Shown here in pieces: positions 1,676-32,397 of a stretch of DNA of 64,000 nt. Position 1 is the stretch's first letter; the number at the start of each line of letters is the position of its first letter. Source of the stretch: an uncultured Clostridia bacterium (GTDB taxonomy: Bacteria > Bacillota > Clostridia > Christensenellales > UBA1242). Under the pieces are notes generated by a model. That model searched no databases and had not been told where the DNA came from. It saw only the letters and a list, made by a program, of their open reading frames with translations. The stretch spans positions 20,822 to 84,821 of the forward strand of contig CANRHL010000001.1 of the NCBI GenBank assembly GCA_947630405.1, in the 5' to 3' direction. Both the position numbers and the translations under genes were made by a program.

Positions 1676-3124
1676 ATGGAAAACAAATTATTAAATAGAG
1701 AAGATATAGTTAAAGATATAAAAAAGGACTATTTCTTACTTTTGCCAAATGGCGAAGAAATTGCGTTAGATTTATCTAACAAAGAAGAAGTTTTAAATAA
1801 ACTAAATAAATATGGGTATGAAGAACTTATAGATTATGTAAAAGCGGAAGAATTGCCTGCCGAAGTTAAACCTGAAGCACCTTCCATTAAAGAGATGAAA
1901 AGGTTGGAACTTGCCGACAATGAAAGTGCAAGTGATAGCGGCAATCATAGAATGTACCCTAATGGGCAACTTATGTTCAGTTTAATTAAAGATTGGCAAG
2001 AACGCATTGCTAAATATGATTTAGGTGCAATGGAAATTGGCTCGCCACTTTTCTACAACAAAGCAGATGAGCAAATTTTAGCACAATGTGGCTCTTTTCA
2101 CGAAAGGCATTATTCGGTAAAAGTGCCAGATGACCCCAACAAAGAATTTATTTTGCGTTTTGCTGCCGACTTTGGCTTGTTTAAAATGGTGCAGCAAGCA
2201 AAATTTAGTTATAAGCAACTGCCATTAAGATTTTTTGAATATAGCGAAAATTTTAGATATGAAAAATCTGGCGAACTCTCTGGCTTAAAACGAGATAGAT
2301 TTTTCCATATGGCGGACATACACTGCTTTTGCAAAGATGAAGAACAAGCAATAGTGGAATATAAGGACATATTTAAAAAATATGAAAATTTAAACTCCGG
2401 TATGGGCATTAAATATGCAAATGTTTTGCGAATTGTTGATGTATTTTACAATAAATATAAACAAGACATTTTGGAATTAGTTAAGTACGCCAACCGCCCA
2501 TTGTTCATTGAAAGAATGGATAAAATGAAACATTATTGGGCAATGAAATCTGAGTGGCAATCAATAGATAGTGTACACGGCAACCAACAACTCTCTACTG
2601 TCCAATTTGATGTGAAAGAGGGCAAAGTTTATAACATTGTTTATGCTGACGAGAACGATGAAAAGAAAAATTGTGTAATTGTTCACTCGTCTGTTGGTGC
2701 GGTGGAAAGGTGTATGTATGCAATATTGGAAGAAGCACTTAAACTAGAACGCCCTGTACTTCCGCTATGGCTTTCACCCGTACAATTAAGAATTTTGCCC
2801 GTAAGCAACGAAGCGCACTTGAATTTTTGCGAACAACTAGATTTTGAAGGCATAAGGTTTGACATAGATGATAGAAACGAAAAACTAGGCAAAAAACTTG
2901 TCCGCGCAAGACAAGAGTGGATACCTTATGTTGTGGTTGTTGGGGATAATGAACTAAATGGTGCTAAATTTAAGGTTAATGATAGATTAAACAACCAAGT
3001 TTTAGAGATGAGCAAGGAAGAACTAGAAAACTTTATCTGCGAGCAAATTAAGAAATATCCATATAGGCCATTAGCATTGTCTAAATATTTAAGTAAACGC
3101 CCTTCATTCTATGGTGCGCTATAA
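1676..3124 (+). CDS. class IIa aminoacyl-tRNA synthetase, ThrRS-like catalytic core plus anticodon-binding domain, without the long N-terminal TGS/editing region
   Basis: Motif 2-like FRYEKSGELSGLKRDRFFHMADIHCFC; motif 3-like GAVERCMYAILEEA. C-terminal LPLWLSPVQLRILPV...DDRNEKLGKKLVRARQEWIPYVVVVGDNE resembles the ThrRS anticodon-binding domain. Only 482 aa. Confidence 0.75.
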   Translation: MENKLLNREDIVKDIKKDYFLLLPNGEEIALDLSNKEEVLNKLNKYGYEELIDYVKAEELPAEVKPEAPSIKEMKRLELADNESASDSGNHRMYPNGQLMFSLIKDWQERIAKYDLGAMEIGSPLFYNKADEQILAQCGSFHERHYSVKVPDDPNKEFILRFAADFGLFKMVQQAKFSYKQLPLRFFEYSENFRYEKSGELSGLKRDRFFHMADIHCFCKDEEQAIVEYKDIFKKYENLNSGMGIKYANVLRIVDVFYNKYKQDILELVKYANRPLFIERMDKMKHYWAMKSEWQSIDSVHGNQQLSTVQFDVKEGKVYNIVYADENDEKKNCVIVHSSVGAVERCMYAILEEALKLERPVLPLWLSPVQLRILPVSNEAHLNFCEQLDFEGIRFDIDDRNEKLGKKLVRARQEWIPYVVVVGDNELNGAKFKVNDRLNNQVLEMSKEELENFICEQIKKYPYRPLALSKYLSKRPSFYGAL

Positions 3125-3190
3125 AAAACCCTTTTCTACCCTATTTTTTACGAAAATTGCCAAAAATTAGAAAAATGTTCGATAAATCAC

Positions 3191-3219
3191 TTGACTTTTT
3201 CGAACAAATGTTCGATAAT
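3191..3219 (+). promoter_or_regulatory. promoter of the Com-like gene
   Basis: TTGACT (3191-3196), 17-nt spacer, GATAAT (3214-3219). Confidence 0.6.
3201..3214. promoter_or_regulatory. LexA (Cheo/SOS) box CGAACAAATGTTCG inside the promoter spacer
   Basis: Perfect CGAAC-N4-GTTCG palindrome. aaatgttcgataa is repeated at 3173-3185 and 3206-3218. Confidence 0.7.
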
Positions 3220-3318
3220 ATGAGTGATGATAGATATAAATATTCTTTAAGTTAGCCCCAGATAATGTAAAAGAAAAGAAAGTATTAAATGTCATCAAAC
3301 GCAAAAAGGAGGCGAAAA

Positions 3319-3516
3319 ATGCGTAAAGAATTTCGTTGCCCTTATTGTAATAAATTGGTGGGCATAACAAAAGAAGACGGAAAATCTATTGTAAAAGTGC
3401 TGCGGCGCGCACCAAGGAACAAATCTAACAATGAAACTATTTTCGAGAACAAATGTCCAAAGTGCAATAACCTAGTATATTTGCAATTTAGATTTTTACA
3501 AAACACAGGAACTTAA
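3319..3516 (+). CDS. small zinc-ribbon protein, Mu Com-like (RCPYCNKL ... KCPKCN)
   Basis: AAGGAGG RBS then ATG at 3319. Two CxxC pairs with the RCxxCNKL / KCPKC pattern I associate with Com-family proteins. Confidence 0.6.
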   Translation: MRKEFRCPYCNKLVGITKEDGKSIVKVLRRAPRNKSNNETIFENKCPKCNNLVYLQFRFLQNTGT

Positions 3517-3555
3517 AAAAGTTCATTTAGTTTAGGGGTCAAAGAATCCCATAGA

Positions 3556-3633
3556 GGCCATAATTAGAGCCCAACTGCTGTCATAGAACGGCAAATTAAA
3601 ACTTGTTTGGGAATTATGGTCTTTTTCTTTTTT
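3556..3633 (+). terminator. long-stem intrinsic terminator downstream of the Com-like gene
   Basis: ggccataatt (3556-3565) pairs with aattatggtc (3612-3621), with inner cccaa/ttggg, followed by tttttctttttt. Confidence 0.65.
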
Positions 3634-3810
3634 ATAAGACATAATTTGGCAAGATAAGTGGAATTTCTTAACTACAACACCTAGTAAAGGTGTTGTAAAA
3701 TTTTGGTGTAAGTTGTGGTAATTTACTCTCATTGAAAGAAAAAGGGGGAATTGCTATTAGACACCAACAAGAAATCATTATCTACCAATACTTTAATCTA
3801 TTTGAAAAGA

Positions 3811-3857
3811 CCTAATTTCAAATGGGGTTTACCCCGCCTTTTGAGATTAGGTTTTTT
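3811..3857 (+). terminator. strong intrinsic terminator within the ICE leader region
   Basis: 12-bp stem cctaatttcaaa / tttgagattagg enclosing gggg-ttta-cccc, followed by tttttt. Confidence 0.7.
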
Positions 3858-3895
3858 AATTGCCATATCCTAAAAAGTTTTTAAAAAAATTTTTT

Positions 3896-3920
3896 AATTG
3901 TAACAGGCATTGTTACAATT
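3896..3920. promoter_or_regulatory. perfect 10-bp inverted repeat (candidate operator) overlapping an extended -10
   Basis: aattgtaaca-ggcat-tgttacaatt. The right arm contains TGtTACAAT, upstream of the HTH gene. Confidence 0.5.
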
Positions 3921-3967
3921 AGCCCACTAAAATGTGGACTAGAAACTGATAAAAGGAGGTGATTGTA

Positions 3968-4306
3968 GTGCGAAGCAGATTTATACAAGACGCTATTCTT
4001 TCAATTCTGCAAGATGGCAAATTGCATAAAATGAAAGATTTGTGCGATGAACTTAATATCTGTCGAATGACGTGCGTAAGGCATATCAACGATTTGTCTT
4101 TGTACTACAATATCCAAACTTTTGTCGGTGGCAGCAAAGCAGGTGTAAGGTTGCTAGATAAGAAAATAGATATTACATATTTACAAGACAATGATCTGCA
4201 ACTCATTGTCGAGCAACTTGGGCGGTTGCAGAGCCCAAATCCAAATATCTCTAAATTTATTAGAAACCTTAACCGCTTTCTAAAAGGAGAGAAAAATGGA
4301 TTATGA
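3968..4306 (+). CDS. winged-helix/HTH DNA-binding regulator
   Basis: HKMKDLCDELNICRMTCVRHINDL HTH-like segment. GTG at 3968 sits 8 nt after AGGAGG; the track start at 3959 overlaps the RBS. Confidence 0.6.
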   Translation: MRSRFIQDAILSILQDGKLHKMKDLCDELNICRMTCVRHINDLSLYYNIQTFVGGSKAGVRLLDKKIDITYLQDNDLQLIVEQLGRLQSPNPNISKFIRNLNRFLKGEKNGL

Positions 4307-4805
4307 GAATTTAAACAATGAAACTCTAAACGATGATGACGAAATTGTGCTTATTGACTATTACGATAGAATACATCAGCAAATGATACACGGATTGCCC
4401 GTTACGAAAAAAGTTGCCAGATTTATGGAAAACAATAAAAAGAAAACTAGAAGAAAACAAAACGATTATGACTACTACACTAGGCCGCTAGAAAAATTTG
4501 ATGAAGAAGACCCAGACAAAATGCAATACTTTATTGATGAAAATTCGGACATTGAAAAGAATTTAGAATTGGCGGAACGAGAAAAATTGGAAGAATTGGA
4601 TAAAGAACACAAAACAACCATAATTGAAAACGCAATGATTGCCCTAACCCCAGAGCAGCAAGAAGTTGTGATTATGGCATACTACAAAAAAATGAGTTAT
4701 AGCGAAATTGCAAAAGAGTTGGGCATTAAAAAACCCTCCGTTTATGAACGAATGCACAACGCGGTGAAAAACATACGAAAATTTGTCGAAAATGGTCAAA
4801 ATTAA
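4296..4805 (+). CDS. sigma-70 region-4 type regulator (sigma-like HTH)
   Basis: C-terminal LTPEQQEVVIMAYYKKMSYSEIAKELGIKKPSVYERMHNAVKNIRKF. Confidence 0.7.
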   Translation: MDYENLNNETLNDDDEIVLIDYYDRIHQQMIHGLPVTKKVARFMENNKKKTRRKQNDYDYYTRPLEKFDEEDPDKMQYFIDENSDIEKNLELAEREKLEELDKEHKTTIIENAMIALTPEQQEVVIMAYYKKMSYSEIAKELGIKKPSVYERMHNAVKNIRKFVENGQN

Positions 4806-4956
4806 AAAATTTTCAACTTTTTTTCAAAAATTTTCTTAAAAATACCCTAACGATTTGCAATTTTATGTCCTCATAGATATAGAGGGGTCAAACAATTTTT
4901 GAAATTCTGGTTGGTGCGCACAACCAAAACTTTCAATAAAAATTTAAGGAGAAATA

Positions 4957-5397
4957 ATGAAAGAACATTACACAGTTAGAATTTATGACAAGCAACTGTC
5001 GGACAAAGTTGAAGGCCTATATAATAAATGTAAAGATTTATATTCTAGTCAAAATCCATTTTTAGTGGATTGCATTAGCAGGGGTGCGGAACTTATAGAA
5101 CACGATTTAGTTGGCGAGAATAAGAAAAACACAATTGCTTCCTTATATGATGAAATTCATTTAACTGTTAGGAAATTGGACAATCTTTTAAAACTTTGTG
5201 AAAAGAGTGCAAAAGAAACGATTGCCAACTTGTCAATCAATCAAAAACTTTTGTCTTGCAATTACAATATGCTTTTAGGATTGTCGGAAAACAACCCAAA
5301 ACCTAAAAACTTTATTGAAAATGGTATGTTTGATGATTTGCCAGAAAGATTAGGCGAATTATTGGAAGATATACTTAAACAAATTTTAGGGAAATGA
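4957..5397 (+). CDS. hypothetical protein, possible relaxosome accessory factor (by position only)
   Basis: Good RBS; its stop overlaps the relaxase start (ATGA at 5394-5397). Confidence 0.5.
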   Translation: MKEHYTVRIYDKQLSDKVEGLYNKCKDLYSSQNPFLVDCISRGAELIEHDLVGENKKNTIASLYDEIHLTVRKLDNLLKLCEKSAKETIANLSINQKLLSCNYNMLLGLSENNPKPKNFIENGMFDDLPERLGELLEDILKQILGK

Positions 5398-6584: not shown

Positions 6585-8746
6585 AATTAGGTAAAAGGAT
6601 TATCTTAATTCTTATAACCTTATTTGCTTGTTATATATGTGGTTATTTATTAAATTTATTTGTTTCTAACAATTTTGTTTTTGAATTTAAAATATCTGTG
6701 GACTTAATGTTGGCAGGCAAAACCCTACTCTACACCTTTGAATTGTTTGCGGTATTTGCGGTTATTTACTTATTCATTTGGTTTAAAGGAATTGGCAAAA
6801 ACCCTAAAAAGATTTTGCAAGCAAATGAAAAGGATAAAGACATTTTCACAGGATTAGAACAAGCACATTTTCAAACAGATAAAGAAATTCAAAACAATTT
6901 TAGAACGATAGATTACGAAAATCTACCCAACGCAAAAATTGAAGGTATTGCAATTAAGACGGAAGAAACCAACAAAGGATACAAAGTTACATTTGCTAAC
7001 CCTGCCCACACTTTGATAATAGGAACAACGGGCTCTGGTAAAACAACCACCTTTATAAACCCAACCATACAAATATTGGCAAATACCTTTAATCAACCTT
7101 CTATGATTATTTCAGACCCAAAAGGGGAATTGTATGCGCTACACTCTAAAAGTTTGATAAAACGCGGATACGATGTAAGAATATTGGATTTAAGAAACCC
7201 TTATTGCTCATTAAGGTGGAATCCGTTAGAACACCCTTATGACCTATACCAAGAAATGCTAACTTTAAATGATAAAGTTATTTTGAACGAAGAAGAAGGT
7301 TATTTCATATTTGAAGGCAAGATTTATTACAGCGAAGAAGAAAAGAACGCTGCGGTGCAGGTGCGACAACAAGAAATCTTTGATGAAGTGTACGAAGATT
7401 TAAACGATATTTGTTCGGTGCTTTGCCCTATTAAAAATAAATCCGAGCCAATATGGGAAAGTGGTAGTAAAAACTTTATTTTGGCAATAGCACTTGCTAT
7501 GTTGGAAGATAGCGAAAACCCTAGTTTGGGTATGACAAGAGAAAAATTCAATTTCTACAACATAATGAAAATTGCCACTAACACGCAAAACGATTGTGAA
7601 GATTTAATGGCGTACTTTAAAAATAGAAGCCCAATTTCTAAAAGTGTTAGTTTGTCTAAACAAGTTTTAGACGCTAGTGATAAAACGCGCGGCTCATATC
7701 TATCTACAATCTTTGATAAATTGTCAATGTTTAGTGATATGAGTATTTGTTCGCTAACAAGTGCAAACGAAATAGATTTTAGCGAATTGCCAAATAAACC
7801 AACTGCCCTATTTTTGCAAATACCAGATGAAAAAGAAACACGCCATACACTTGCTGCTATGGTTATATTGCAAGCATATAAGGCACTTGTAGCAAAGGCA
7901 AACACCTATGCCGATTTAACTTTGCCGCGTAGTGTTTACTTTTTGTTAGACGAATTTGGTAACCTACCTAAAATTCACAAACTAGAACAAATGATTACGG
8001 TTGGCAGAAGCAGAAAAATATGGTTGGCGTTAGTTGTTCAATCTTATGCACAACTTGCAAAAGTTTATGATGACAAAACTGCCGACATTATAAAATCCAA
8101 CTGCAATATTCAAGTATTTATTGGTACAACTGACCTTAAAACAATAGAAGAATTTTCTAAAAAGTGTGGAAATTACTCTATTATGCAACGAAATGTAAGC
8201 TTTTCTTCTTCTAACGATAATGTTGGAAGTTCGGTAAGCATTAAGGAAAGACCACTAATCTACCCAACCGAATTGCAACAACTAAATAGCCCAGACAATA
8301 TGGGCAATGCAATAGTTAATGTATTTGGTTATCCACCAATTAAAAGCAAATATACACCAAGTTTTAAATGCAAACACTTCAACTTGGAAAAGACCAATCA
8401 ATTACTTTCGGAGGGCAAATATTTTAACGAAAAGAAAGTTTTATACAATATGCTAGACCGAAATGAGATTATCCTTTCAAATAAAGCAGGTGTGCCAATG
8501 CCAGATTTAGCACCATTTATTGAAAGTTTAATAATTCAAATTGAAAAACTAGATTTTGAAAGTTTAGGTTGCTTTGAATTAAAAATGGAAATGCTTAATG
8601 CGGTGGAAAAGAAAGATTTTAATAGATTAAGTAATATAGCAATTAAACTAGAAACCATTGCAAAAAACAGAAATAGCGAGGACTTTGCATTTGTTAAAAA
8701 CTTATGCGTAAAAGTTCAGCAGCTAAAAAGGTTGGCACGACAATGA
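6581..8746 (+). CDS. type IV coupling protein (VirD4/TraG family)
   Basis: N-terminal TM helices; Walker A GTTGSGKTT; Walker B YFLLDEFGNL; VVQSYAQL. Confidence 0.9.
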   Translation: MKLGKRIILILITLFACYICGYLLNLFVSNNFVFEFKISVDLMLAGKTLLYTFELFAVFAVIYLFIWFKGIGKNPKKILQANEKDKDIFTGLEQAHFQTDKEIQNNFRTIDYENLPNAKIEGIAIKTEETNKGYKVTFANPAHTLIIGTTGSGKTTTFINPTIQILANTFNQPSMIISDPKGELYALHSKSLIKRGYDVRILDLRNPYCSLRWNPLEHPYDLYQEMLTLNDKVILNEEEGYFIFEGKIYYSEEEKNAAVQVRQQEIFDEVYEDLNDICSVLCPIKNKSEPIWESGSKNFILAIALAMLEDSENPSLGMTREKFNFYNIMKIATNTQNDCEDLMAYFKNRSPISKSVSLSKQVLDASDKTRGSYLSTIFDKLSMFSDMSICSLTSANEIDFSELPNKPTALFLQIPDEKETRHTLAAMVILQAYKALVAKANTYADLTLPRSVYFLLDEFGNLPKIHKLEQMITVGRSRKIWLALVVQSYAQLAKVYDDKTADIIKSNCNIQVFIGTTDLKTIEEFSKKCGNYSIMQRNVSFSSSNDNVGSSVSIKERPLIYPTELQQLNSPDNMGNAIVNVFGYPPIKSKYTPSFKCKHFNLEKTNQLLSEGKYFNEKKVLYNMLDRNEIILSNKAGVPMPDLAPFIESLIIQIEKLDFESLGCFELKMEMLNAVEKKDFNRLSNIAIKLETIAKNRNSEDFAFVKNLCVKVQQLKRLARQ

Positions 8747-11700
8747 AAAAAACAAAATCTAAAAATATTTTAACAATTTTAATATTTTCTGTTTGCTTAT
8801 TCATTTCAATAGCACTTGCTTGTAGTGGATTGGTTAGCAGTGGCGGAAAATCTAATATGGGAGTTATAAGCCCATTTGTCGATGGCACTGTAATTATCCC
8901 AGATAATTCACTTGTGCATTGGGAATCCCCAGATTATAGCAATGCGAATTTAGAGCCAGACACCCCATATTCAAATGGTGTTTTAAGGCGGTATTTGTTT
9001 CTAGGAATTTACAATCAAGTAAGAAATGAAACCGTAAGCGGATTTCACTTCCCGCAATTTGTAAGATATTTCGAAGTGGCAAGAGTTGATGGTAGATACA
9101 TTTACGATGATGATGGTATTTTAGACACCAATTCTAGTGAAGAAGTTGTAAACTACCCTTCAATGCTTTATTCAACTGAAAGCACTTTGCCCGTTAAGAA
9201 AGACGCAGGCCCATTTTGGACAGACCATCAACCAAGTTTTAAAAACGGAGATTTGGAAGTAAACTTTTACTCCAACTCGACATCTTCGACATTCTATTAT
9301 GGCGTGCCGCGCGACCCTTCAAACAATTTTCACTCAATTTGCTACATAATAGATAAAGATTGTAAACCTTATATATCCAATCCAACAAAATTCAATGTAT
9401 ATCTAAACGCCACAGGGCAATACACCAACACTTTTTGGGGGAACACAAGTGGCAGTTATGGTATGAATTTTAATATGACCTATGACATTTCTATGGCAGC
9501 AAGAGATTGGAACAACTCGTTAAAGGCAAGTACGCCAAGCGGAACATATAAAGGCAAAACAATCTATTACTCACCGAAAGAATTTACTGCTATTGCAACA
9601 AACTTGAACAATTTATTGAAAATTAACGATGTTCAAATTGACCCGCTTTATGGAACTACTGTTGTGCCATTTAAAGATGGACACCACATAACCATAACCG
9701 ATGTTGGCATTACAAAGGTTGATTTGGAAAATGGCAGCGAGAACAACTACACTACCTATTATTGTATGATAGACAATAAATTGCCAGATGTTTCTTACAA
9801 CTATTCAAACACAAATGCCCTAGATTTAAGGAAAATAAGTTCAATCACAACTGAAAGCAGTGGTGCTAAAACACAAACAATCTATGAAGGCATTTTTAAA
9901 GACCAAGTACAAGTAAATTTTGGTGCGAACGAAGATGAAAGCCCAGAAACCGCCACCTACACTTTAAATGGCGAAACACACAACTTAACAAGCGGCACTT
10001 GGTTAAAACAGGAAGGCAGTTATGTTGTTACAATTAAAGATAGCGCAGGCAACACAACCATAAGCAAGTTTGATATAGATTGCACTAACCCATTTGCAAA
10101 CCTAAACCGAGTTAAAAATGATAATAACTATAAGGTTGCTAAATGGTATTTAACAACTATACCTAACGGATATAGCGGATATGGCACTTATTCGTTTTTA
10201 GAACGAGCAGACGCTTTAAATTACGCTTGCGAAATTGAAAAGCAAAATTTAGTTACAGAATATAATTTGGAACGAGTGGAAGATTTCGCCAACACGCACT
10301 TACTTGCAAAAGGAAATAGTGTTAAAGTTGGCAAGTATTGGTATTATAAATCAATAGACAATGACCAATTTTATGTTTATTACTTTGATGAGAACTCACT
10401 TAACCAAGCAATTCAACATTATGCTGAAAAGTTTGTTTCGGTGGAACATAAATATAATATCAATTCTTCATTAACACCAAATAACTATGGCAATATACTA
10501 GATAAAAGTATATATGACAATGTTGTTTCAAAAAATGGCATAAATGCTTATATGGGCAATAACTTTGTGTTTAGAACGGATAGCAATATGGAAAGTTATA
10601 AAATATATTGCGACTATGCCGAAGATAGCACCGAAGATTATAAGGAACTACAATACAACAAAGTTTTTTCAACCCAAGTTAATGGGTATGGACTTTACAA
10701 AATAAAGGAAATAGATTTTGTTGGACACGAAAGTTATTACTATCTATTTTTAGATAATCAGGCACCAATGCTAGACATTGAAGCAAAAATTTATGGCAAA
10801 GATAAGCTTATAAACCAATCTATATCCGTAAATGATATACCTAACAATGGCGAGCTTATCTATTATTATGAGAGTTTTAAAATAGCACAAGTTATAGAAG
10901 ATGATAAATGGTGGATTATGGAGATTAAAACACCAAAAGACACCGTTTTAAGATACACCTATTTAGATGAGTTGCCAAACTTTGGCAATCTCGGTGCAGG
11001 CGAATATTCAATTACAATAGCGGATAGAAATTCAAACAAATTTAATTTCAAAATATCCCTATTAGGAAAAGCACCAGAGGCAGTATTTCAAAACATAAAT
11101 GCCAACACTCAATTAAGGATAGATATTAAATGCAGCGAAGATTACAATTCTATAACCGAAATTAAGATTTATAGAAATGGAATTTGCTTAAATGCTGAAA
11201 ATGGATATGATGAATACCCTAATTTAGAAAATGATTTAATATTTATCAACCCATCTATCAAAACCTACACTTTTAACAAAGGCGGCACATACAAAGTTGA
11301 ATTGACCGACATATTTGGAAGAAGCATAACTTATGAATATAAGTTTGAAAAGGATTTGCCTGTTGGGGATTTAATTGGTGTTAAGCACAATGGCAAAACG
11401 AATAGCGAAGTTAGATTTACTTATAACTCATCAAAATATTATGTTGTTATAGAAAAGAATAGCGGTGTTTATACACCAGAAGAAAGCGAAAGTAACTTTA
11501 TCAAAACACTTATCTTTACGCCGAACGAAAATTTACAAGATTTTTATTCAATTAAGCTTATAGATAACACCGACCCAGAGAACTACAATATTTACAACTT
11601 TACAATCAAAACCATTAAACCTATCATCAATCTATTTGGAGTTGACCCTAATGGTACAACAGGCGGAAGTGTGTACGCACTATGGGATAGTGGCGAAGAA

Positions 11701-13119
11701 ATTTATTCTGCCACCTATTCACTAAATGGCAACACACAAGAATATAGAAAAGGACAAACTTTAACAATTGAAGGCAATTACACAATTACTTTAACTGATG
11801 AATTAGGAAATTCCACAACAATACAATTTGAAATAGACAAAAGCATTAACTTTGTTATTGCAGACCTTGATGGTAAAACTTATGAAATAGAAGATTTGGA
11901 CTATATCAATTTTGATATTAAAATAGTAAATAACGAGCCACTAAATGTAACCATTACAAAAAATGGCAATCCTTATGATTATGAATTTGGTTTAATGATT
12001 AGCGAAGAAGGATATTATGAAATTGTCCTTACTGACGAGTTTAACAACTCAATTTACTTTTACTTTACAATTGACAAAACACCACCATCCGCCACACTTT
12101 ATGGCGTAGAAGAATTTGGCAAAACGAATAAATCCGCTTGGGTTGTTTCAAATGACACCAATTTAACTTGTTGGTATGTTGTCAATGAAGCTTATAGAGA
12201 TAGTTATAAGCTTGGCGAAGAACTCACTAAAAGTGGTAAATATGTTGTCTATGTTGCAGATAGAGCAAACAATTTTGTTAGCTTTGAATTTCAAATAGAC
12301 AAAGAAATTGCGTTTGATATAAACACTTATCGAGGCGGAATTTCAAATGGCGGCGTGCGAATTATTGCTTATGAGAATTTAAAAATTTATATGGCAAAAG
12401 ATGAGCAAATGATAGATTATCAATTCGAACAAATTTTAAATGATGAGGGTGAATATTCATTTACAATAACAGACGAACTAGGAAATATGTATTCTAGTTA
12501 TTTCACAATAATAAACAAAGCAAAACAAAATTTACAACACTTGTTACAGGAAGACATTTCTATTAAATCAATTTCAAAAGACAATGAAACTTATGAGTAT
12601 GAACTTTTAGAAAATTCACTTTATCTTTATGATGAAGGCAAATACCTTATTTCAATTATAGACAACAAAACCAATAACGAATATTCATTTGAAATCACAC
12701 TTGATACTACCCCACCAACACTAGAAATTTTTGGTGTTGAAAATGGCGGCAAAACAAAAAATGTTGTTGTTTTGAAAAATGTATCGGAAACACCTTACGA
12801 ACTTATAATCTATGTTGATGGAGTTAGATTTGACTACAAACTTGGAGATAAAATTGAAAAATCTGGCAAGTTTGAAATTACACTAAAAGACGAAGCAGGC
12901 AACACAACCACTTACTCTTTTGAACGAGAATACTCATTCAATGCAGCAAGCATAGCAGTGTTTGTTGGACTTGGTGTTTTAGTTATTTTATTGATTATCT
13001 TGCTAATAAAATCTAGGCATCATTACTACAAAGAAAAGATTACGGAAGAAGAAATCAAAGAAACTTTGATTGATGATGATATAGACAGCAATGATAGCGA
13101 AAATACTGAAAATCAATAG
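8743..13119 (+). CDS. large surface protein / putative mating adhesin with Ig-like repeats
   Basis: ATG at 8743 overlaps the T4CP stop (ATGA). Signal peptide ...FISIALA|CSG. About eleven repeats of G-Y-(I/V)T(L/I)-D-GN-...F-(I/L)D by my count. C-terminal TM helix plus acidic tail, no LPxTG. Confidence 0.75.
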   Translation: MKKTKSKNILTILIFSVCLFISIALACSGLVSSGGKSNMGVISPFVDGTVIIPDNSLVHWESPDYSNANLEPDTPYSNGVLRRYLFLGIYNQVRNETVSGFHFPQFVRYFEVARVDGRYIYDDDGILDTNSSEEVVNYPSMLYSTESTLPVKKDAGPFWTDHQPSFKNGDLEVNFYSNSTSSTFYYGVPRDPSNNFHSICYIIDKDCKPYISNPTKFNVYLNATGQYTNTFWGNTSGSYGMNFNMTYDISMAARDWNNSLKASTPSGTYKGKTIYYSPKEFTAIATNLNNLLKINDVQIDPLYGTTVVPFKDGHHITITDVGITKVDLENGSENNYTTYYCMIDNKLPDVSYNYSNTNALDLRKISSITTESSGAKTQTIYEGIFKDQVQVNFGANEDESPETATYTLNGETHNLTSGTWLKQEGSYVVTIKDSAGNTTISKFDIDCTNPFANLNRVKNDNNYKVAKWYLTTIPNGYSGYGTYSFLERADALNYACEIEKQNLVTEYNLERVEDFANTHLLAKGNSVKVGKYWYYKSIDNDQFYVYYFDENSLNQAIQHYAEKFVSVEHKYNINSSLTPNNYGNILDKSIYDNVVSKNGINAYMGNNFVFRTDSNMESYKIYCDYAEDSTEDYKELQYNKVFSTQVNGYGLYKIKEIDFVGHESYYYLFLDNQAPMLDIEAKIYGKDKLINQSISVNDIPNNGELIYYYESFKIAQVIEDDKWWIMEIKTPKDTVLRYTYLDELPNFGNLGAGEYSITIADRNSNKFNFKISLLGKAPEAVFQNINANTQLRIDIKCSEDYNSITEIKIYRNGICLNAENGYDEYPNLENDLIFINPSIKTYTFNKGGTYKVELTDIFGRSITYEYKFEKDLPVGDLIGVKHNGKTNSEVRFTYNSSKYYVVIEKNSGVYTPEESESNFIKTLIFTPNENLQDFYSIKLIDNTDPENYNIYNFTIKTIKPIINLFGVDPNGTTGGSVYALWDSGEEIYSATYSLNGNTQEYRKGQTLTIEGNYTITLTDELGNSTTIQFEIDKSINFVIADLDGKTYEIEDLDYINFDIKIVNNEPLNVTITKNGNPYDYEFGLMISEEGYYEIVLTDEFNNSIYFYFTIDKTPPSATLYGVEEFGKTNKSAWVVSNDTNLTCWYVVNEAYRDSYKLGEELTKSGKYVVYVADRANNFVSFEFQIDKEIAFDINTYRGGISNGGVRIIAYENLKIYMAKDEQMIDYQFEQILNDEGEYSFTITDELGNMYSSYFTIINKAKQNLQHLLQEDISIKSISKDNETYEYELLENSLYLYDEGKYLISIIDNKTNNEYSFEITLDTTPPTLEIFGVENGGKTKNVVVLKNVSETPYELIIYVDGVRFDYKLGDKIEKSGKFEITLKDEAGNTTTYSFEREYSFNAASIAVFVGLGVLVILLIILLIKSRHHYYKEKITEEEIKETLIDDDIDSNDSENTENQ

Positions 13120-19361: not shown

Positions 19362-20417
19362 ATGGAAGAAAATAAAAAATCAAAAGCGGCAGGCATATCA
19401 ATTGGTATTATTGTTCTTGTTGTGTTTTTAGGATTTGGATTTTTAATTGGATTTGCACAAACAAGAAGCGCACAAAACTTGGCACAAACAAATGATGAAG
19501 GCCCTTATGCCGATTTTTACTTTAATAAAAATGGCGAACTTATTTATTATGCAGGTGATGAGAGTGAAGTTGTTGTGCCAGAAACCTACTCTATCAATAC
19601 AATTGCTCAAACAAAAGAAATTGTTAGTCAAAATGTAAACGAATTGACAAATATTGCTGCTAAATTAGGGTTGGAAGATTACACAATACTTGCAACGCAA
19701 GTGCCATCTCCAACTTCTTATGGCAAAACGGTTACTGAATACACACTAAAATTTAGATTTTTTGGTGCGGTTGCAGGTAGTGATTACACCGTAACAAGAA
19801 TTGCCGAAAGGGCGTTCACTGACAACACAAAAATAACAAGAGTTGAATTGCCGCAAACGGTTACATATTTGGGCGAAACTGCGTTTGCAGGTTGCACTAA
19901 ATTAAAAGAAGTGGTTTTGCCGCCTTCGTTAGATTATATGGGACAATATCAATTTCAGAATTGTTCTAGTTTAACATCAATAACAATTCCTAAAAACCTT
20001 ACGGATATAAATTATGGCAGCTTTATGAGTTGTTCTAACTTGCAAAGTGTAGAAATGTCAGACGATATTACTTGTATTGGCTCGCAAGTATTTTATTATT
20101 GCAAAAATTTGAAATCAATTAAATTGCCTGCCAATTTGCAACGCATAGAATCAAATGCTTTTTACTATACAGGGTTGGAAGAAATTGATATTCCTGCTAG
20201 CGTGAACTACATTTCAAACAGAGCATTTTGGGGTTGCAATAACCTAACGAAAGTTGTTTTGCGTTCATCTATGGTTGTGAGTGCGGACTCTTCAATTTTT
20301 AGCACCAATAGAAAATTGAAAATTTATGTAAATGATGACTTGTATGATAGTTATAAACAAAGTTATCCTTGGAGTGAATATTCTTCAAATATTTATAAAA
20401 TAAGCGAGATGGAATAA
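19362..20417 (+). CDS. membrane-anchored BspA-type leucine-rich-repeat surface protein
   Basis: N-terminal TM helix. Repeated units such as I-AF-C-L-I-IP-V-IG of about 23 aa (AFAGCTKLKEVVLPPSLDYMG, FQNCSSLTSITIPKNLTDIN ...). Confidence 0.8.
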   Translation: MEENKKSKAAGISIGIIVLVVFLGFGFLIGFAQTRSAQNLAQTNDEGPYADFYFNKNGELIYYAGDESEVVVPETYSINTIAQTKEIVSQNVNELTNIAAKLGLEDYTILATQVPSPTSYGKTVTEYTLKFRFFGAVAGSDYTVTRIAERAFTDNTKITRVELPQTVTYLGETAFAGCTKLKEVVLPPSLDYMGQYQFQNCSSLTSITIPKNLTDINYGSFMSCSNLQSVEMSDDITCIGSQVFYYCKNLKSIKLPANLQRIESNAFYYTGLEEIDIPASVNYISNRAFWGCNNLTKVVLRSSMVVSADSSIFSTNRKLKIYVNDDLYDSYKQSYPWSEYSSNIYKISEME

Positions 20418-20419
20418 AT

Positions 20420-21310
20420 ATGAAAAAAGTACAAGTTATGTCGTGGGGAGTATTGTTTATTGTAGCAATTGCCCTATGTCTTTTTTTAATTGGATTTACA
20501 CAAAGTGTAGATTTACATAAAGATAAAATTCTACCCCTAGATGGGTACATTTTAAGTGCAGGCACGATTGTTGGTTACGAGGGCGATGACAAAGTTTTGG
20601 AAATTCCCGCAAGTTATTCTTATGGTGGCACAAAGCAAAAAGTTGGGCAAATAACCTTTAATTATGAGTGGGAAGCTTTTGAATTTTTTGAAGAAAACTA
20701 TGCCATAGGTGCGGAAGGTTATTACGATTTTTATGAAGAAATTTACACGCACGAATATCCTTGGGATTACACCTACAACATAACTCAATATATTTATGTT
20801 CAGGGTGATGATTTTAAAATAACCAATATTGCAGAAAGTGCTTTTAGAAATAACCGAAAAATTGAAAAGGTTATTTTGCCACGAGCAATAGAGAAAATAG
20901 GCAACTTTGCTTTTGAAAATTGCTCTAACCTAAAAGAAGTGGAATTTAAAGAGGGATTAAAAGTGCTTGGGGATAGTGTGTTTAGGTGGTCAGGCGTAGA
21001 AAAAATAAACTTCCCACAAAGTTTAGAAACCATTTATCCATATTGCTTTAATGGTTGCTCTTCTTTAACGGAAGTAACCGTTGGCGAAAATGTTAAAGAA
21101 ATAATGATGGGTTGTTTTAATGGCTGCGACAACTTGGAATATGTTTATCTAAATTCGCAATACGCAATAGACACCTTTTACACGGATTATTACCAAGTAT
21201 TTTCACGCTGCCCTAAACTAAAAGCAATTTATGTGCCAGAAAAACATTTGAACTACTACCAGACAACTATGCCTTGGAGTATGTGGAGTGAATTATATAT
21301 AGCAATTTAG
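20420..21310 (+). CDS. second membrane-anchored BspA-type LRR surface protein
   Basis: N-terminal TM helix; AFENCSNLKEVEFKEGLKVLG, FNGCSSLTEVTVGENVKEI repeats. Confidence 0.8.
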   Translation: MKKVQVMSWGVLFIVAIALCLFLIGFTQSVDLHKDKILPLDGYILSAGTIVGYEGDDKVLEIPASYSYGGTKQKVGQITFNYEWEAFEFFEENYAIGAEGYYDFYEEIYTHEYPWDYTYNITQYIYVQGDDFKITNIAESAFRNNRKIEKVILPRAIEKIGNFAFENCSNLKEVEFKEGLKVLGDSVFRWSGVEKINFPQSLETIYPYCFNGCSSLTEVTVGENVKEIMMGCFNGCDNLEYVYLNSQYAIDTFYTDYYQVFSRCPKLKAIYVPEKHLNYYQTTMPWSMWSELYIAI

Positions 21311-21323
21311 TATGGAGTAAATT

Positions 21324-24300
21324 ATGACAGAACAAGCAGTTGCAAATGATTTAATTGAAAACATATTGGACAACACAATTTATCTTGCTAACTTTTTTAA
21401 GTTTAGAGTAAACAATCCCGCTTTTAATTTCGCACAAGCAATGCAAATAATAACTCGCAACCCACACGCAAGCATTTGCAAATCATTTGATGAGTGGAAC
21501 GCGCTAAATAGAAGAATTATTCGAAATTCAAAAGCACTTACATTTATTGATGAAAATAACCCTAGCAAGAAACGATATGTTTTTGATATAGACCAAACTT
21601 ATGGCGTGGATTATCCGCCAAAGACCTATCCTATGGACAATCATTTAGTTGCTGAAATAGACCAAATAAATGACATAGAAAGTGAAAACACAACAAACAA
21701 TTATTACAATCTTTTAGATGTTATTAACCAATTCAATGCTGAAAATGGTTATACAAAAGAAAATAAAACTGAAAACCAATATCTAAATAGATTTATTGCA
21801 ATTTATCTAAACGCGACATTTGTAAATTCAATAAAAGTGCCAGCGGAAGTGGATTTTGAAGAACTTGACACTAATAAAAAAATAGATTTATGCGAAGAAG
21901 CGGAAGAAATTGCAAAAGAAATTACAAATTCAATTTTACAAATAAGGAGAGAAAATGAAAAATCAAAATTACAATCCAATAGAGAAAGCTCAACAATTAG
22001 ACCGATACGGTATAATGGCATTGAACTATCTAAAAACAACTCGACAGAACAAATATCTATACTTGATGATGACGGAAACTTTGTTAGATTATTTGTTGAA
22101 GATACAAACTCAATGCAACCAAATGCAACAGAGATTGTTAAGGAAATTCCGCAAGAATATGAAACCAACATTGAATTATATGGAGAGATTACACCTAGAA
22201 CAAATGAATTACGAGATAGCGGAAGAATTGATAACCCACAAGATAATTTACAATATCTAAACTATAAACTAACTGAAAAAGATTTTGAAAAAATTGGCGG
22301 CGCAAAAACTAAATATAAAGATAATGTTGCGGCAATAAAACTTGTTAGACAACTAGATGAAGAAAACCGCAATCCAACGCAAGAAGAACAGGCAATTCTA
22401 GCCAAGTATGTTGGTTGGGGTGGAATTCCGCAAGTTTTTGATGAAAATAATGAGAATTGGCAAAAAGAATATGCCGAACTCAAAGAACTTTTATCCACGA
22501 AACAATATGAACTTGCGAAAAGCTCTACCCTAACCGCCCATTTTACTAGCAAAACAATCATTGATGGAATTTACAATGCGTTATCTAATATGGGATTTAC
22601 AAAAGGCACTATTTTAGAGCCCGCAGCAGGAACAGGCAACTTTATTGGACTTGTGCCAGATAGTTTTGATAAAACAAAAATTTCTGGCGTGGAAATTGAT
22701 GAGATAACAGGCAAAATTGCAAAATATCTTTATCCACAATCTAACATACAAATTACAGGGTTTGAAAACACAAACTTTAAAGACAATCAATTTGATAGCG
22801 TTATAACCAATGTGCCTTTTGGTGCTTATAAGGTTTACGATAGAGATTATGATAAATTTAATTTCTTTATCCACGATTACTTTATTGCTAAATCAATAGA
22901 TAAAATTAAACCAAATGGAATTTGTGCGGTTATTACTTCAAAAGGGACAATGGACAAACTTTCTAGCAGTTTTAGAAAGTATGTTGCTGACCGCGCTGAA
23001 TTGCTTGGTGCTATTCGCTTGCCAAACAACGCTTTTAAAGAGAACGCAGGAACGGAAGTTACGGCGGACATTTTGTTCTTCAAAAAGCGTGGAACAATGA
23101 TAGATAGCCAAGATAGTTGGATTTATGTAGGCAAAAATGAAAATGATATACCGCTAAACGAATATTTTATTGACCACCCAGAAATGGTGCTTGGAACAAT
23201 GAAACAAGGTGCAAGTATGTATGGTGGTGCTGATGAAACTTATTGCGAAGCTGACGATAGACCACTAGACATTGCCCTATCACAAGCAATAGCGAACTTG
23301 CCAAAGGAAATATACCAAGCACAAGTTGTTGTTGAAGAAGAAAAAAACGAAGATGTTTTGCCCGCAGATTATAACATTAGAAACTATTGCTATTCAATGA
23401 AAAATGACAAAGTGTATATGCGTGTTGATGACCAAATGATTTTACAAAACATTGCCAAAACAAATATAGATAGATTTAGGCGAATGATTGAAATAAGAGA
23501 TAAGGTTAGGTTTATTTTACAAAGGCAAATAGATAATTGTAGTGATGATGAATTGTTGCACGAGCAAACGAACTTAAACACTCTTTATGACAATTTTGTT
23601 AAAAAGTATGGATACTTAAATAGTAAACATAATAGAAATTTGTTTAGGCAAGACGCGGATTACCCTTTGCTTATTTCACTAGAAAACTATGATGAACACA
23701 ACAAAACCGCAACTAAAACCGACATATTTAGTAAACGCACAATAAGAATACACGAACGAGTTAAAACCGCAAATGATGCCCAAGAAGCATTGCAAATAAG
23801 CAAAAACGAGTTGGGCAAAGTGGATTTAAGATATATTGAACAACTTACAGGGTTAGATTATGACACTGTGGTAGAAAATTTAAAGAACTCTATATTTAAA
23901 AATCCACTTGCGGAAACTTTTAACACAGAAGAAGATATTAAATATGTTGGTTGGGAAACCGCCGATGAATATTTAAGCGGAAATGTTAAGCAAAAGTTAA
24001 GAATTGCAAAAAGGGCTGCACAAGACAATCCAATGTACAATGTAAATGTTGAAGCATTGGAAGAAACGCAACCAGAAGATATCCCGGCAAGTGATATTTC
24101 GGTTAGATTGGGTGCAACTTGGATTGACAAAAAGTATTACGAGCAATTTTTAGGGGAAAAGTTTAAAGTTAATAATTATTATAGAGATGAAATAAAGGTT
24201 GAATATAATAGATTTGATGGGAGTTGGGCAATTTCTGCACCTTCGTGGATTAAATCAAACATAGAATCCACGAGTATTTATGGAACTAATAGAATGAACG

Positions 24301-28812: not shown

Positions 28813-29925
28813 ATGCAACAACTATCAATTTTTGATGAGTTGGGGGATGAATTTAAAGAATATAAAGCAATAAAAAGCAACGATTGGTTATGGAGTTTTA
28901 AAGATTATCCACAAAAAAATGGATTAAAAGTGTTTAGTTGTTTTGCAGGTGGTGGTGGCTCTACTATGGGATATAAACTTGCAGGTTATGATGTTATAGG
29001 TTGTTTAGAGATAGACAAAAGAATGAATAACATTTACAAGTTAAACCACAATCCAAAATACAATTTTCTTATGGATATACGAGAATTTAACAATACACCT
29101 AACAACGAATTGCCAAAAGAATTGTTTGACTTGGATATTTTAGATGGCAGCCCACCCTGCACAACATTTTCAATTTGCGGAAAACGAGAAGCAACTTGGG
29201 GAAAATTGAAAAAGTTTAAAGAGGGACAAAAAGAACAAACACTTGATGACCTACCCTTCATTTTCATTGAAACGGTAGACAAATTAAAACCTAAATTTGT
29301 TGTTATGGAAAATGTGGAAGGATTAACACAGGGCAATGCTTGGAGATATGTTCAAAGAATTTATGCTAGTTTTAAAAAAATTGGATATAAAGTTAAGCAT
29401 TGGTTGTTAAAGGGCGAATTTATGGGCATACCACAAGCACGCCATAGAATATTCTTCATAGCAACAAAATTAGATATTGATTTAGACAAAATCAATATGG
29501 CATTTAACTATAAACCAATCTTATTTAAAGAGATAAAAAGTAAAAAAGGACTACCCTTACCCAAATGGGTTGAAAAACTTGCAGAGAACGCTAAATATGG
29601 CGAGAGAAATTTAGAAAATGCAAGTTTAAGATTGCGAGGCAAGGCGTCTTTTTTTAATTATTGCTTTGTGTATGATGACAAAATTTCGCCAACTCTCACA
29701 GCAAGAGCAAATTTAATTAGGTGGGACACTAAAAACTTTTTATCCAAGCAAGATATGTTAAGCGTTTCGACATTCCCACAAGATTTTAAATTTATAAATG
29801 AAGCACCAGACCAAATGGGATTTGTTTGTGGAATGAGTGTTCCGCCAATAATGATAAAGCGAATTGCGGAAAGATTATACCCATATTTAATAGACAACGA
29901 ATTAAGGAGTGAAAATGGACAATAG
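28813..29925 (+). CDS. DNA (cytosine-5)-methyltransferase, orphan (no adjacent endonuclease seen)
   Basis: FSCFAGGGGS (motif I), GSPPCTTFS (motif IV), ENVEGL (VI), QARHRIFF (VIII), GMSVPP (X). Confidence 0.9.
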   Translation: MQQLSIFDELGDEFKEYKAIKSNDWLWSFKDYPQKNGLKVFSCFAGGGGSTMGYKLAGYDVIGCLEIDKRMNNIYKLNHNPKYNFLMDIREFNNTPNNELPKELFDLDILDGSPPCTTFSICGKREATWGKLKKFKEGQKEQTLDDLPFIFIETVDKLKPKFVVMENVEGLTQGNAWRYVQRIYASFKKIGYKVKHWLLKGEFMGIPQARHRIFFIATKLDIDLDKINMAFNYKPILFKEIKSKKGLPLPKWVEKLAENAKYGERNLENASLRLRGKASFFNYCFVYDDKISPTLTARANLIRWDTKNFLSKQDMLSVSTFPQDFKFINEAPDQMGFVCGMSVPPIMIKRIAERLYPYLIDNELRSENGQ

Positions 29926-30562
29926 AACATTAACTGCAAAAGAAATAAAGAAATTTTTTGAAAATTGTAAAGGCCATAAATTTGAATGTTTTTATAAAAT
30001 GGTGTTTGCTTATAGATTGTCGCGCTATGAAATGTTAAATTTGCAATGGGAAGATATAAATTTTGACAATGATACAATTACAATCTACCCCGTTAAGTAT
30101 GTTATAGACCACAAGCGAGCAAAGAACTATTGGCAAAAATATAAAAATACTGAATTTGGTAGAACTTACCCTTTGTTGCCAGATATTAGAAATTTGCTTA
30201 TCAAACGAATGGAAAAGCAAATGGAAAATTCTAAAAATGAAAATTTCAATGCGGACAACACAAAATATGTTTGTATAGATAAAAATGGCAAACTTATCAA
30301 TGCGAACACTTTAAGCAGAAATTTAAAATACATAACCAAGAAAGCAAAACTACCAACTATTTTAATTTCGGACTTGAAACATAGTGCGGAAGATTTTTTC
30401 TTTAAGAAAACAACAAGCATTGACTTTTATAGGTGTTGGACACGCGCCGACATTTTGCAAAGACAAGAAAATGTTTATGGCGATTTTAATTTATTAAGAG
30501 GCAAAAGATTTGTTAAAGAGTTAGACAATTTAATTTCAAACGAGAGAGAACTCGAAATGTGA
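29915..30562 (+). CDS. tyrosine-recombinase catalytic-domain paralog with degenerate active site and no N-terminal DNA-binding domains
   Basis: Aligns by eye to the C-terminal half of the adjacent integrase. Arg I (YRLSRYE) and a Tyr (NVYGDF) are kept, but HDLRHS is replaced by SDLKHS. Confidence 0.55.
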   Translation: MDNRTLTAKEIKKFFENCKGHKFECFYKMVFAYRLSRYEMLNLQWEDINFDNDTITIYPVKYVIDHKRAKNYWQKYKNTEFGRTYPLLPDIRNLLIKRMEKQMENSKNENFNADNTKYVCIDKNGKLINANTLSRNLKYITKKAKLPTILISDLKHSAEDFFFKKTTSIDFYRCWTRADILQRQENVYGDFNLLRGKRFVKELDNLISNERELEM

Positions 30563-32119: not shown

Positions 32120-32152
32120 ATTTGTTGTGAATTTGTGAAAAATTTGTGAAAA
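32120..32152 (+). repeat. three tandem 11-nt repeats (atttgttgtga / atttgtgaaaa / atttgtgaaaa), candidate recombinase arm-type sites
   Basis: Direct reading; one-helical-turn phasing, about 90 bp beyond the int stop. Confidence 0.45.
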
Positions 32153-32266
32153 AGCACATTTTTCGGCCATTTGGGGGTTAAATTTTGTTCATTTTTTAAA
32201 GCAAAAACTCAAACCCCCAATCAACATAGAATTGATACGCACAATGGCAACTGTTTGTGGTGGAGA

Positions 32267-32320: not shown

Positions 32321-32397
32321 TGGTGCACCCAGAGGGATTCGAACCCCCGGCCTCCGCGTCCGTAGCGCGGCGCTCTATCCAGCTGGGCTATGAGTGC
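32321..32397 (-). tRNA. tRNA-Arg (anticodon ACG)
   Basis: Reverse complement GCACTCA TA GCCCAGCTGGATAGAGC G CCGCG CTACGGA CGCGG AGGCC GGGGGTTCGAATCCCTC TGGGTGC A CCA. Confidence 0.95.

Follow-up and report, generated by a model that had tools for sequence, protein, structure and literature searches.

The transfer of mobile elements triggered by the SOS response explains the spread of genes by DNA-damaging antibiotics, and its wiring is known from a few models, such as SetR of SXT, ImmR/ImmA of ICEBs1 and the antirepressors of phages. Among the closest described systems are the LexA-controlled antirepressor or activator genes of temperate phages (Tum of coliphage 186, the Gifsy antirepressors and AntC of N15) and the Bacillus phage GIL01, whose lysogeny is controlled by host LexA and gp7. 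In this work we analyzed a stretch of 64,000 nucleotides (the window, in the following) from an uncultured Clostridia bacterium of the Christensenellales (contig CANRHL010000001.1), in which an integrative and conjugative element (ICE) carries at its left edge a LexA-type palindrome embedded in the promoter of a gene coding for a zinc-ribbon protein of 65 amino acids (aa). On the basis of the sequence and of its conservation, we suggest with moderate confidence that this palindrome is a working LexA-family operator, that promoter, operator and zinc-ribbon gene represent a conserved and portable SOS module existing in two forms, and that in this ICE the module is probably repressed by the LexA of the host.

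The likeness to the phage antirepressors is threefold: a small mobile-element gene lies behind a LexA box of the host type, the regulator of the element (a 112-aa helix-turn-helix, HTH, protein) lacks a self-cleaving domain, and the host SOS signal would be read through one small trans-acting protein. The differences are that the element is a Clostridia ICE, that its four-cysteine zinc ribbon is unrelated in sequence to those proteins, that the relatives carry a LexA paralogue in the same operon, and that the zinc ribbon does not co-vary with the HTH regulator. This lack of co-variation may argue, if weakly, against a binding of the element repressor of the Tum or Ant type.

Concerning SetR of SXT/R391 and lambda cI, most relatives of the window ICE encode an S24 repressor with intact serine and lysine, whose RecA-stimulated self-cleavage is the likely trigger. 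However, this repressor has the winged helix of LexA (PF01726, TIGR00498) rather than a cI/XRE HTH and a Cys-Gly site, its operator is a LexA-type box, and the window ICE has no S24 repressor gene at all. The first-pass annotation of this DNA had proposed a route unlike that of SetR; this holds for the window ICE, which is without a self-cleaving repressor, but not for most of its relatives, which encode one of the LexA type and thus follow a SetR-like logic. With GIL01 the locus shares a host LexA box in a control promoter and a very small element protein under that promoter, but no sequence relation of the zinc ribbon to gp7 was found. With Com of phage Mu (PF10122, PHROG 6417/13819) it shares a four-cysteine zinc ribbon of about 60 aa bearing the knuckles R-C-P-x-C-N-K-L and K-C-P-[KR]-C; in contrast to Mu, no mom-like gene lies downstream, where terminators are followed by HTH and sigma-like genes, and the protein belongs to the SOS module of an ICE. 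Lastly, strong intrinsic terminators near the element end, separating end-proximal transcription from the regulatory and transfer genes, are also found in Tn916, where such a terminator has a documented insulator role and canT is an antiterminator (PMC11658703), and in pLS20, with its conAn antitermination (PMC8191782); no match to the ConAn1 protein (PF17362) was found among the proteins scanned. The module resembles known systems in its logic and differs from them in the element type and host, in the Cys-Gly LexA paralogue, in the zinc-ribbon partner and in the position at the edge. Full-text literature searches combining LexA and ICE with zinc ribbon or MobL returned no description of such a module.

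A putative LexA-type operator at the left edge of the ICE

The features of the left edge are the following (coordinates are those of the window):

3147-3172, + strand: left boundary zone of the ICE; homology begins at 3147 (locus L010) or 3171 (locus L013)
3173-3185, + strand: upstream copy of the 13-mer AAATGTTCGATAA, a lone GTTCG half-site within the terminal ~15-40 bp of the ICE
3191-3219, + strand: P_box, sigma-70-type promoter TTGACT-N17-GATAAT, predicted to drive the zinc-ribbon gene
3201-3214, no strand: putative LexA-family operator CGAACAAATGTTCG, filling the promoter spacer, its last base being the first base of the -10 hexamer
3226-3318, + strand: 5' untranslated region (UTR) of ~93 nt, with GCCCC (3255-3259) in a hairpin loop, complementary to the Shine-Dalgarno (SD) sequence GGAGGC (3308-3313)
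3319-3516, + strand: gene of the 65-aa four-cysteine zinc ribbon (CPYC...CPKC), with ribosome-binding site (RBS) AAGGAGGC

The perfect LexA box reported by the first-pass annotation in the spacer between TTGACT and GATAAT was found as described: CGAACAAATGTTCG at 3201-3214 is an exact Gram-positive LexA box (CGAAC-N4-GTTCG) and a perfect palindrome. Within the window the exact 14-mer is found a single time, against 0.02 occurrences expected, and any match appeared in only 2 of 100 dinucleotide-preserving shuffles; the shorter core GAAC-N4-GTTC occurs twice, the second copy (14659) being intragenic. A chance match is ruled out by this low expectation and by the conserved position of the box in the promoter. 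P_box (-35 TTGACT at 3191-3196, -10 GATAAT at 3214-3219, spacer of 17 nt) matches the promoter consensus at 10 of 12 positions; in a promoter scan it was the top promoter-like site of the + strand in 3000-5000 and the sole + strand site located 5' of the zinc-ribbon gene. The Gram-positive consensus and the clostridial LexA operators, GAACnnnnGTTC/GTTT, are those of PMC4234289, and the boxes of the related elements described below fit the latter. Thus, the locus presents the palindrome, GAAC-N4-GTTC in its extended form, the overlap with the core promoter and a position kept in orthologous promoters, and we infer that the palindrome is a genuine LexA-family operator, at which LexA would bind and from which P_box would be induced by the SOS response.

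The 13-nt direct repeat, which had been interpreted as adding an upstream half-site, is real in both its copies: exact matches to AAATGTTCGATAA are limited to 3173-3185 and 3206-3218. The upstream half-site, however, is specific to the clade of the window, since L010 and L013 have it but the promoter of L028 does not.

The zinc-ribbon gene was expected to be the first gene of the ICE rather than a host gene, and this is borne out by its surroundings. Three unrelated left flanks were found (that of the window and of L009, with a class II aminoacyl-tRNA synthetase gene, that of L010 and that of L013), so that the zinc-ribbon gene is a gene of the ICE and the first one inside it. The comparison of these flanks draws on short metagenomic contigs that carry the same element with an identical or 98%-identical zinc ribbon, and the homology of L028 to the left end of the window also begins near 3146. 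A host gene is ruled out by the three left flanks together with the linkage to a MobL relaxase gene in 14 of 16 related loci. The LexA box lies 30-70 bp inside the left end, and box, promoter and gene are all included in the first 30-370 bp of the element.

Two forms of the module in related elements

A relaxase scan of species genomes revealed 16 related loci in metagenome-assembled genomes of Christensenellales, Clostridia and Firmicutes, designated, like the other loci compared, by L and a number. Fourteen of these carry a homologue of the zinc ribbon some 2 kb before the gene of the MobL relaxase, and their gene order is constant: zinc ribbon, a gap of 260-490 nt, HTH, sigma-like gene, orf146 and relaxase. 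The zinc-ribbon gene is directly preceded, in 13 of the 16 loci and in the distant L031 and L040, by a gene for a 198-aa LexA paralogue, which carries PF01726 (LexA_DNA_bind) and PF00717 (Peptidase_S24) and scores 130-153 bits on the NCBI LexA equivalog TIGR00498 (cut-off 110.95). As read from an alignment with B. subtilis LexA, these paralogues keep the serine of G-[DN]-S-M and the catalytic lysine, and they have Cys-Gly where the scissile bond of LexA is Ala-Gly. The cleavage site of UmuD is the same Cys-Gly pair.

The promoter of the paralogue operon is homologous to that of the window (CTTG[CA] at -35, a LexA-type box in the spacer, TATAAT at -10), the DNA upstream of it being unrelated. 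The interpretation of the box as a LexA operator is reinforced by its conservation: of 11 further lineages, with zinc ribbons 23-55% identical to that of the window, 10 have a box at the corresponding place of the promoter, the exception being the L015-L019 clade. Boxes of the type GAAC/AAAC-N4-GTTC/GTTT are present in the spacers of L005, L021/22, L025, L026, L027/30, L028, L031, L032, L039 and L041, and in 14 aligned promoters (alignment A6) the invariant parts are TTG of the -35, TGTT of the right half-site and A-TA-T of the -10. Across all loci compared, the only GAAC-N4-GTTC outside the homologous promoter was a single copy within a gene of L026. In L033, another member, the palindrome of the promoter is a different one. 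The boxes read as follows:

L028: CGAACAAATGTTCT
L027/L030: CGAACAAATGTTTT
L026: CAAACAAATGTTCT
L025 and L005: CAAACATTTGTTCT
L021: AGAACAAATGTTCT
L031: TGAACAAATGTTCT
L032: AGAACAAATGTTCT, between TTGACA and TATAAT
L039: AGAACATTTGTTCT
L041: CGAACATTTGTTTT

The module exists therefore in two forms. In most relatives (form A) P_box is followed by the ICE-borne LexA paralogue, the zinc-ribbon gene and a terminator, T1; in the window and in at least four other lineages (form B) it is followed by a 5' UTR of 90-150 nt, the zinc-ribbon gene and T1. Besides the window, form B was observed in L005-L008, L032, L039 and L041, with zinc ribbons about 26-55% identical to that of the window. A phmmer search with the LexA paralogue of L015 against all open reading frames (ORFs) of at least 35 aa in the 64-kb window detected no LexA-like ORF. 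The pairing of box and zinc-ribbon gene at related ICEs, which the first-pass annotation had put forward for checking, thus recurs with or without the paralogue; since the LexA-type operator and the zinc-ribbon gene are present in both forms, they represent the invariant unit, and the LexA paralogue is optional. A deletion scar left by a paralogue gene between promoter and zinc-ribbon gene was looked for and discarded, local alignments giving promoter homology only. The window has GATAAT as -10 where its relatives have TATAAT, and its -35 is closer to consensus; the perfection of its palindrome, paid for with the initial base of the -10, fits a tuning to a LexA that would be supplied in trans.

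The 5' UTR of form B deserves a comment. Across the five paralogue-less lineages (window, L005, L032, L039 and L041) its only invariant blocks are GCCCC and the SD sequence GGAGGC, and GCCCC falls in a hairpin loop in four of the five. The fold of the window UTR has a z-score between -2.8 and -3.4, which is weak, and the pairing of GCCCC with the SD sequence comes without covariation and is thus only a lead; GCCCC could be an anti-SD element or a protein-binding loop.

In the paralogue-carrying ICEs (L015-L031) a second palindrome was observed directly after the -10, at promoter positions +1 to +30 (e.g., L028, ~235-262). Its versions include AAAGAAC-GGTGT-GTTCTTT, ACAAAC-GGTGC-GTTTGT and ACATAC-GCTAT-GTATGT, whose arms co-vary; its center in L019 resembles the reverse complement of the L016 center, and the window lacks this palindrome. 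It might serve as another operator (with N5-6 spacing) or form a stem-loop at the 5' end of the mRNA.

The zinc-ribbon family and the downstream region

The 65-aa ORF at 3319-3516 does contain the pattern RCPYCNKL...KCPKCN for which the first-pass annotation had singled it out. The family is rare: a word-indexed search of 5.8 billion proteins gave two clusters, and an exhaustive profile search of 1.84 billion representatives gave about 16 true members of 62-66 aa (alignment A3), sharing the motif C-P-x-C...G...P...C-x-x-C. The AlphaFold2 (AF2) model of the protein (pLDDT 85.5) has five beta strands. It retrieved no match at E<2 in a fold search of the PDB, and a profile search of PDB sequences gave nothing below E 0.2. 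NCBIfam holds no family for the zinc ribbon, for the HTH protein or for orf146, and the zinc ribbons that turned up when metagenomes and viruses were scanned with the alignment of close members were all distant or unrelated.

As for the proposed kinship with Com, it is a weak lead. The window protein scores 16.6 bits on the Pfam hidden Markov model of Com (PF10122), below the cut-off of 22.9, through residues 1-14 (the first knuckle) only, and many generic zinc-ribbon families score similarly on it. Among the 16 family members, three match Com at E<=0.01 and six match PHROG 6417, "translational regulator"; P0002 reaches 24.2 bits on PF10122 with no single significant stretch. On the other side, the profile-profile comparison of A3 with a Com alignment alone (hhalign) gave a probability of 91.4% and an E-value of 8.9e-7 over 39 columns covering both knuckles, with an insertion of 22 residues. 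The Com alignment had been built from homologues of Mu Com, and the matches listed were all annotated as PF10122. According to AF2 and hhalign, the 22 extra residues between the knuckles of the ICE family form an added beta hairpin. Com is, therefore, the nearest named family; the similarity is weak and membership is not established.

A 57-aa zinc ribbon of the Com type (RCPHCNKLLGK...KCPKCHAFVYL), without the 22-residue insertion, was observed at 2212-2385 of L034, an IMG/VR contig of phage origin, between the genes of the terminase large subunit and of the portal; in sequence it bridges Mu Com and the ICE family.

Downstream of the zinc-ribbon gene the following features were recognized:

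3553-3633, + strand: terminator T1, a long hairpin GGCCATAATT...GGAATTATGGTC followed by TTTTTCTTTTTT, directly 3' of the zinc-ribbon stop codon
3673-3697, + strand: second terminator-like hairpin with a 10-bp stem
3811-3857, + strand: terminator T2, CCTAATTTCAAA...TTTGAGATTAGG followed by TTTTTT, its stem CCTAAT/CCTTAAT being kept across the family
3896-3920, no strand: perfect 10-bp palindrome AATTGTAACA-GGCAT-TGTTACAATT, ~50 nt upstream of the HTH gene
3968-4306, + strand: gene of the 112-aa HTH protein, with a weak HTH_11 match and conserved synteny, the first downstream regulator of the ICE
4296-4805, + strand: gene of a 169-aa sigma-70 region-4 protein

The statement that about 450 nt of structured RNA follow the gene is correct as far as the folding is concerned: region 3517-3958 has a minimum free energy (MFE) of -130 kcal/mol (z = -7.2), and none of 100 shuffles folds as well. 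It is not, however, a leader of the zinc-ribbon gene, being made up mainly of T1 directly after that gene, of T2 and of a palindrome that tracks the HTH protein. Equivalents of T1 are placed directly after the zinc-ribbon gene in most relatives examined (e.g., L021 and L025-L029). In the window no canonical promoter of the + strand is predicted between P_box and the HTH gene, the RBS of the HTH gene remains accessible in the MFE structure, and no S24 domain was found in the 112-aa HTH protein. A search for known RNA families in 3000-5000 and in the 5' UTRs of the relatives gave only a sub-threshold osmY hit (Rfam, 3897-3968, overlapping the palindrome; 26 bits against a gathering score of 46.9), which we take as a chance match.

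A palindrome or hairpin lies about 60-110 nt upstream of the HTH gene in all relatives (L015-L030), with compensatory changes in its arms, and falls into a class A (GC-rich stem and AAATGGT-like loop) and a class B (CAGRCATTG center); at most loci it is followed by an extended -10-like motif, TGnTAAGAT or TGnTAAAGT. The class of palindrome tracks the type of HTH: the window, L015 and L029 share 55-63% identity in the HTH protein and the same class. Conversely, zinc ribbons 92% (L015/L016) or 72% (L028/L029) identical adjoin HTH proteins 43-47% identical and the other palindrome class. The palindrome at 3896-3920 is thus the probable operator of the HTH regulator, presumably autoregulatory, and probably not a target of the zinc ribbon. 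Its independence of the zinc-ribbon type also implies that the SOS module is a cassette recombining independently of the downstream regulators.

The whole ICE block extends from ~3.15 kb to ~32 kb and comprises genes for the HTH and sigma-70 region-4 proteins, a MobL relaxase, a VirD4-type coupling protein, a pilin of the type IV secretion system (T4SS), a VirB4-like ATPase, a primase, a C5 methylase, an HTH_17 excisionase (Xis) and a 419-aa tyrosine integrase, with domain matches to MobL, T4SS-DNA_transf, T4SS pilin, TraG P-loop/AAA_10, HTH_17 and Phage_integrase. Since conjugation and integration genes occur together and behind different left flanks, the block is a bona fide ICE. Neither a copy of the 13-mer nor any similarity to the left end was found near the right end, scores remaining at shuffle level, and no direct repeats of the att type were found between the two ends.

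Some observations concern the borders and the cargo. About 100 nt 3' of the integrase stop codon, tandem copies of AATTTGTGAAA (32131-32153) may be arm-type sites of the integrase or Xis sites. Near the right end, the segment 32436-32490 (- strand) is 75% identical to part of the adjacent tRNA-Arg (32321-32397) and may be a tRNA remnant or a degenerate duplicate; ARAGORN makes no call there. The host gene abutting the left end (1676-3124) codes for a 482-aa class II aminoacyl-tRNA synthetase (tRNA-synt_2b and HGTP_anticodon), and the exact protein has no entry in a large gene-position index; no obvious terminator separates this gene from the ICE end, so that host read-through into P_box is possible. 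The cargo (8704-13119, 19362-21310, 21324-27095 and 29909-30562) includes a 1471-aa repeat-rich protein of the surface type, two BspA-type leucine-rich-repeat proteins and a 1923-aa SNF2/ResIII helicase protein, and a second, short Phage_integrase-like ORF (217 aa) lies upstream of xis-int.

Possible mechanism and rival explanations

How might the module work? With no LexA-like protein encoded by the window ICE, the repressor has to be supplied in trans; its most probable source is the Clostridia host, whose LexA would repress P_box in the undamaged cell. That the host is a Clostridia lineage agrees with TrpS, the closest named relatives of which (81-82% identical) carry the labels Clostridiales or Clostridia MAGs. 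Upon DNA damage, the RecA-stimulated self-cleavage of LexA would free P_box and the zinc-ribbon protein would be made. Transcription is expected to stop at T1, which would leave the zinc ribbon as the sole dedicated output of the module, and we infer that this protein acts in trans. The independent recombination of the module points to a generic or co-inherited partner; the target might therefore be RNA polymerase or terminators, LexA or RecA, or its own mRNA, and probably neither a specific HTH regulator nor the leader of the HTH gene. Indeed, the fact that the palindrome follows the HTH protein and not the zinc ribbon speaks against recognition of that leader and, equally, against a specific antirepressor contact with the HTH protein. 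An extension of this scheme, which we offer only tentatively as possible though unlikely in its entirety, is a plug-in SOS sensor of gut-Clostridia ICEs, in which the operator and the optional Cys-Gly LexA paralogue would be joined to a Com-like zinc ribbon working as a generic switch, either by allowing passage of T1/T2 through binding of RNA or RNA polymerase or by modulating LexA or RecA, and so coupling damage to transfer.

Several findings weigh against repression by host LexA through a conserved SOS module. The window does not include the lexA gene of the host. The paralogues and B. subtilis LexA have different recognition helices, so that the box could be tuned to the paralogue and not to host LexA. 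A degenerate spacer box accompanies an intact paralogue and an intact zinc ribbon in the L015-L019 clade. L020 (1-1830) is without the SOS module and L023 (256-388) keeps only the C-terminal 28 codons of the zinc ribbon; both retain T2 and the block of HTH, sigma and relaxase genes, which makes the module accessory and not essential for the ICE. Finally, the window zinc ribbon has no family match above threshold and no fold match in the PDB.

A first alternative, which we also regard as possible though doubtful, is that the zinc ribbon does not activate ICE genes but assists LexA, either as a co-repressor or by modulating its cleavage, similar to gp7 of GIL01, any signal reaching the ICE by read-through of T1/T2 from the derepressed P_box. 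It would account for the fact that the constant partners of the zinc ribbon are a LexA-type operator and a LexA protein, ICE-borne or of the host, and that its type is independent of those of the HTH protein, the sigma-like protein and the palindrome, which is against a specific downstream target; the topology, a small protein under a LexA-repressed promoter, is also that of GIL01. However, no sequence or fold similarity to any LexA-binding protein was found, and the only signal at the family level is to nucleic-acid-binding zinc ribbons of the Com type. Moreover, the HTH gene of most relatives seems to have its own extended -10 promoter 3' of T2, so that read-through is not required.

According to the first-pass annotation, a Com-type RNA binder would remodel the RNA of 3517-3958, by translational activation or antitermination, and so switch on the HTH and sigma-like regulators. 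The profile-profile probability of 91%, the PHROG 6417 matches in six of 16 members and the 24.2 bits of P0002 on PF10122 agree with this proposal, as do the strong structure of the region (z -7.2), its two or three terminators and the absence of a predicted canonical + strand promoter between P_box and the HTH gene of the window. On the contrary, the window protein stays below the Pfam cut-off and has 22 residues inserted between its knuckles, T1 should end the zinc-ribbon transcript, and the RBS of the HTH gene is free in the MFE fold; in addition, zinc ribbons 92% identical adjoin HTH proteins 47% identical and a different palindrome class. The remodeling of a leader is thus unsupported, the region consisting mainly of two conserved terminators and the palindrome that tracks the HTH protein, and we consider this explanation unlikely.

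It is quite unlikely, in our opinion, that the box is a relic or a site for the paralogue only, the window promoter being constitutive or repressed only by the paralogue of a related ICE residing in the same cell. Such a reading would find a basis in the paralogue carried by most relatives, with a DNA-binding helix unlike that of chromosomal LexA, and in the dispensability of the module in some of them; but form B is old and recurrent, occurring in five lineages each with a box in the spacer, the box of the window has come closer to the perfect consensus by sacrificing the first -10 base, and the boxes match the published clostridial LexA operators. The idea that the 13-mer repeats and the palindrome are recombination sites (integrase arm or Xis) and not an operator is very improbable, since, even though the repeats lie in the terminal 30-70 bp and direct repeats near ICE ends are often of the arm type, neither a 13-mer copy nor a similarity occurs near the right end, the upstream copy is missing in relatives, and the position of the palindrome is fixed to the -35/-10 and not to the element end, also in L032 and L039, whose neighborhood is different.

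Returning to the SOS module presumably repressed by host LexA, what we have found looks like an undescribed module for the sensing of DNA damage. This family of ICEs from uncultured gut Clostridia shows a wiring different from that of the known models, with a LexA-type operator at the very edge of the element, an ICE-borne LexA paralogue added in many members, and a conserved zinc ribbon of 62-66 aa throughout. Since the paralogue is present in one natural form and absent from the other, self-controlled and host-controlled SOS sensing can be compared directly, and the zinc ribbon is a small and tractable candidate for a new regulator. If the reading as a plug-in sensor were true, DNA damage would be coupled to conjugative transfer in the gut microbiota.

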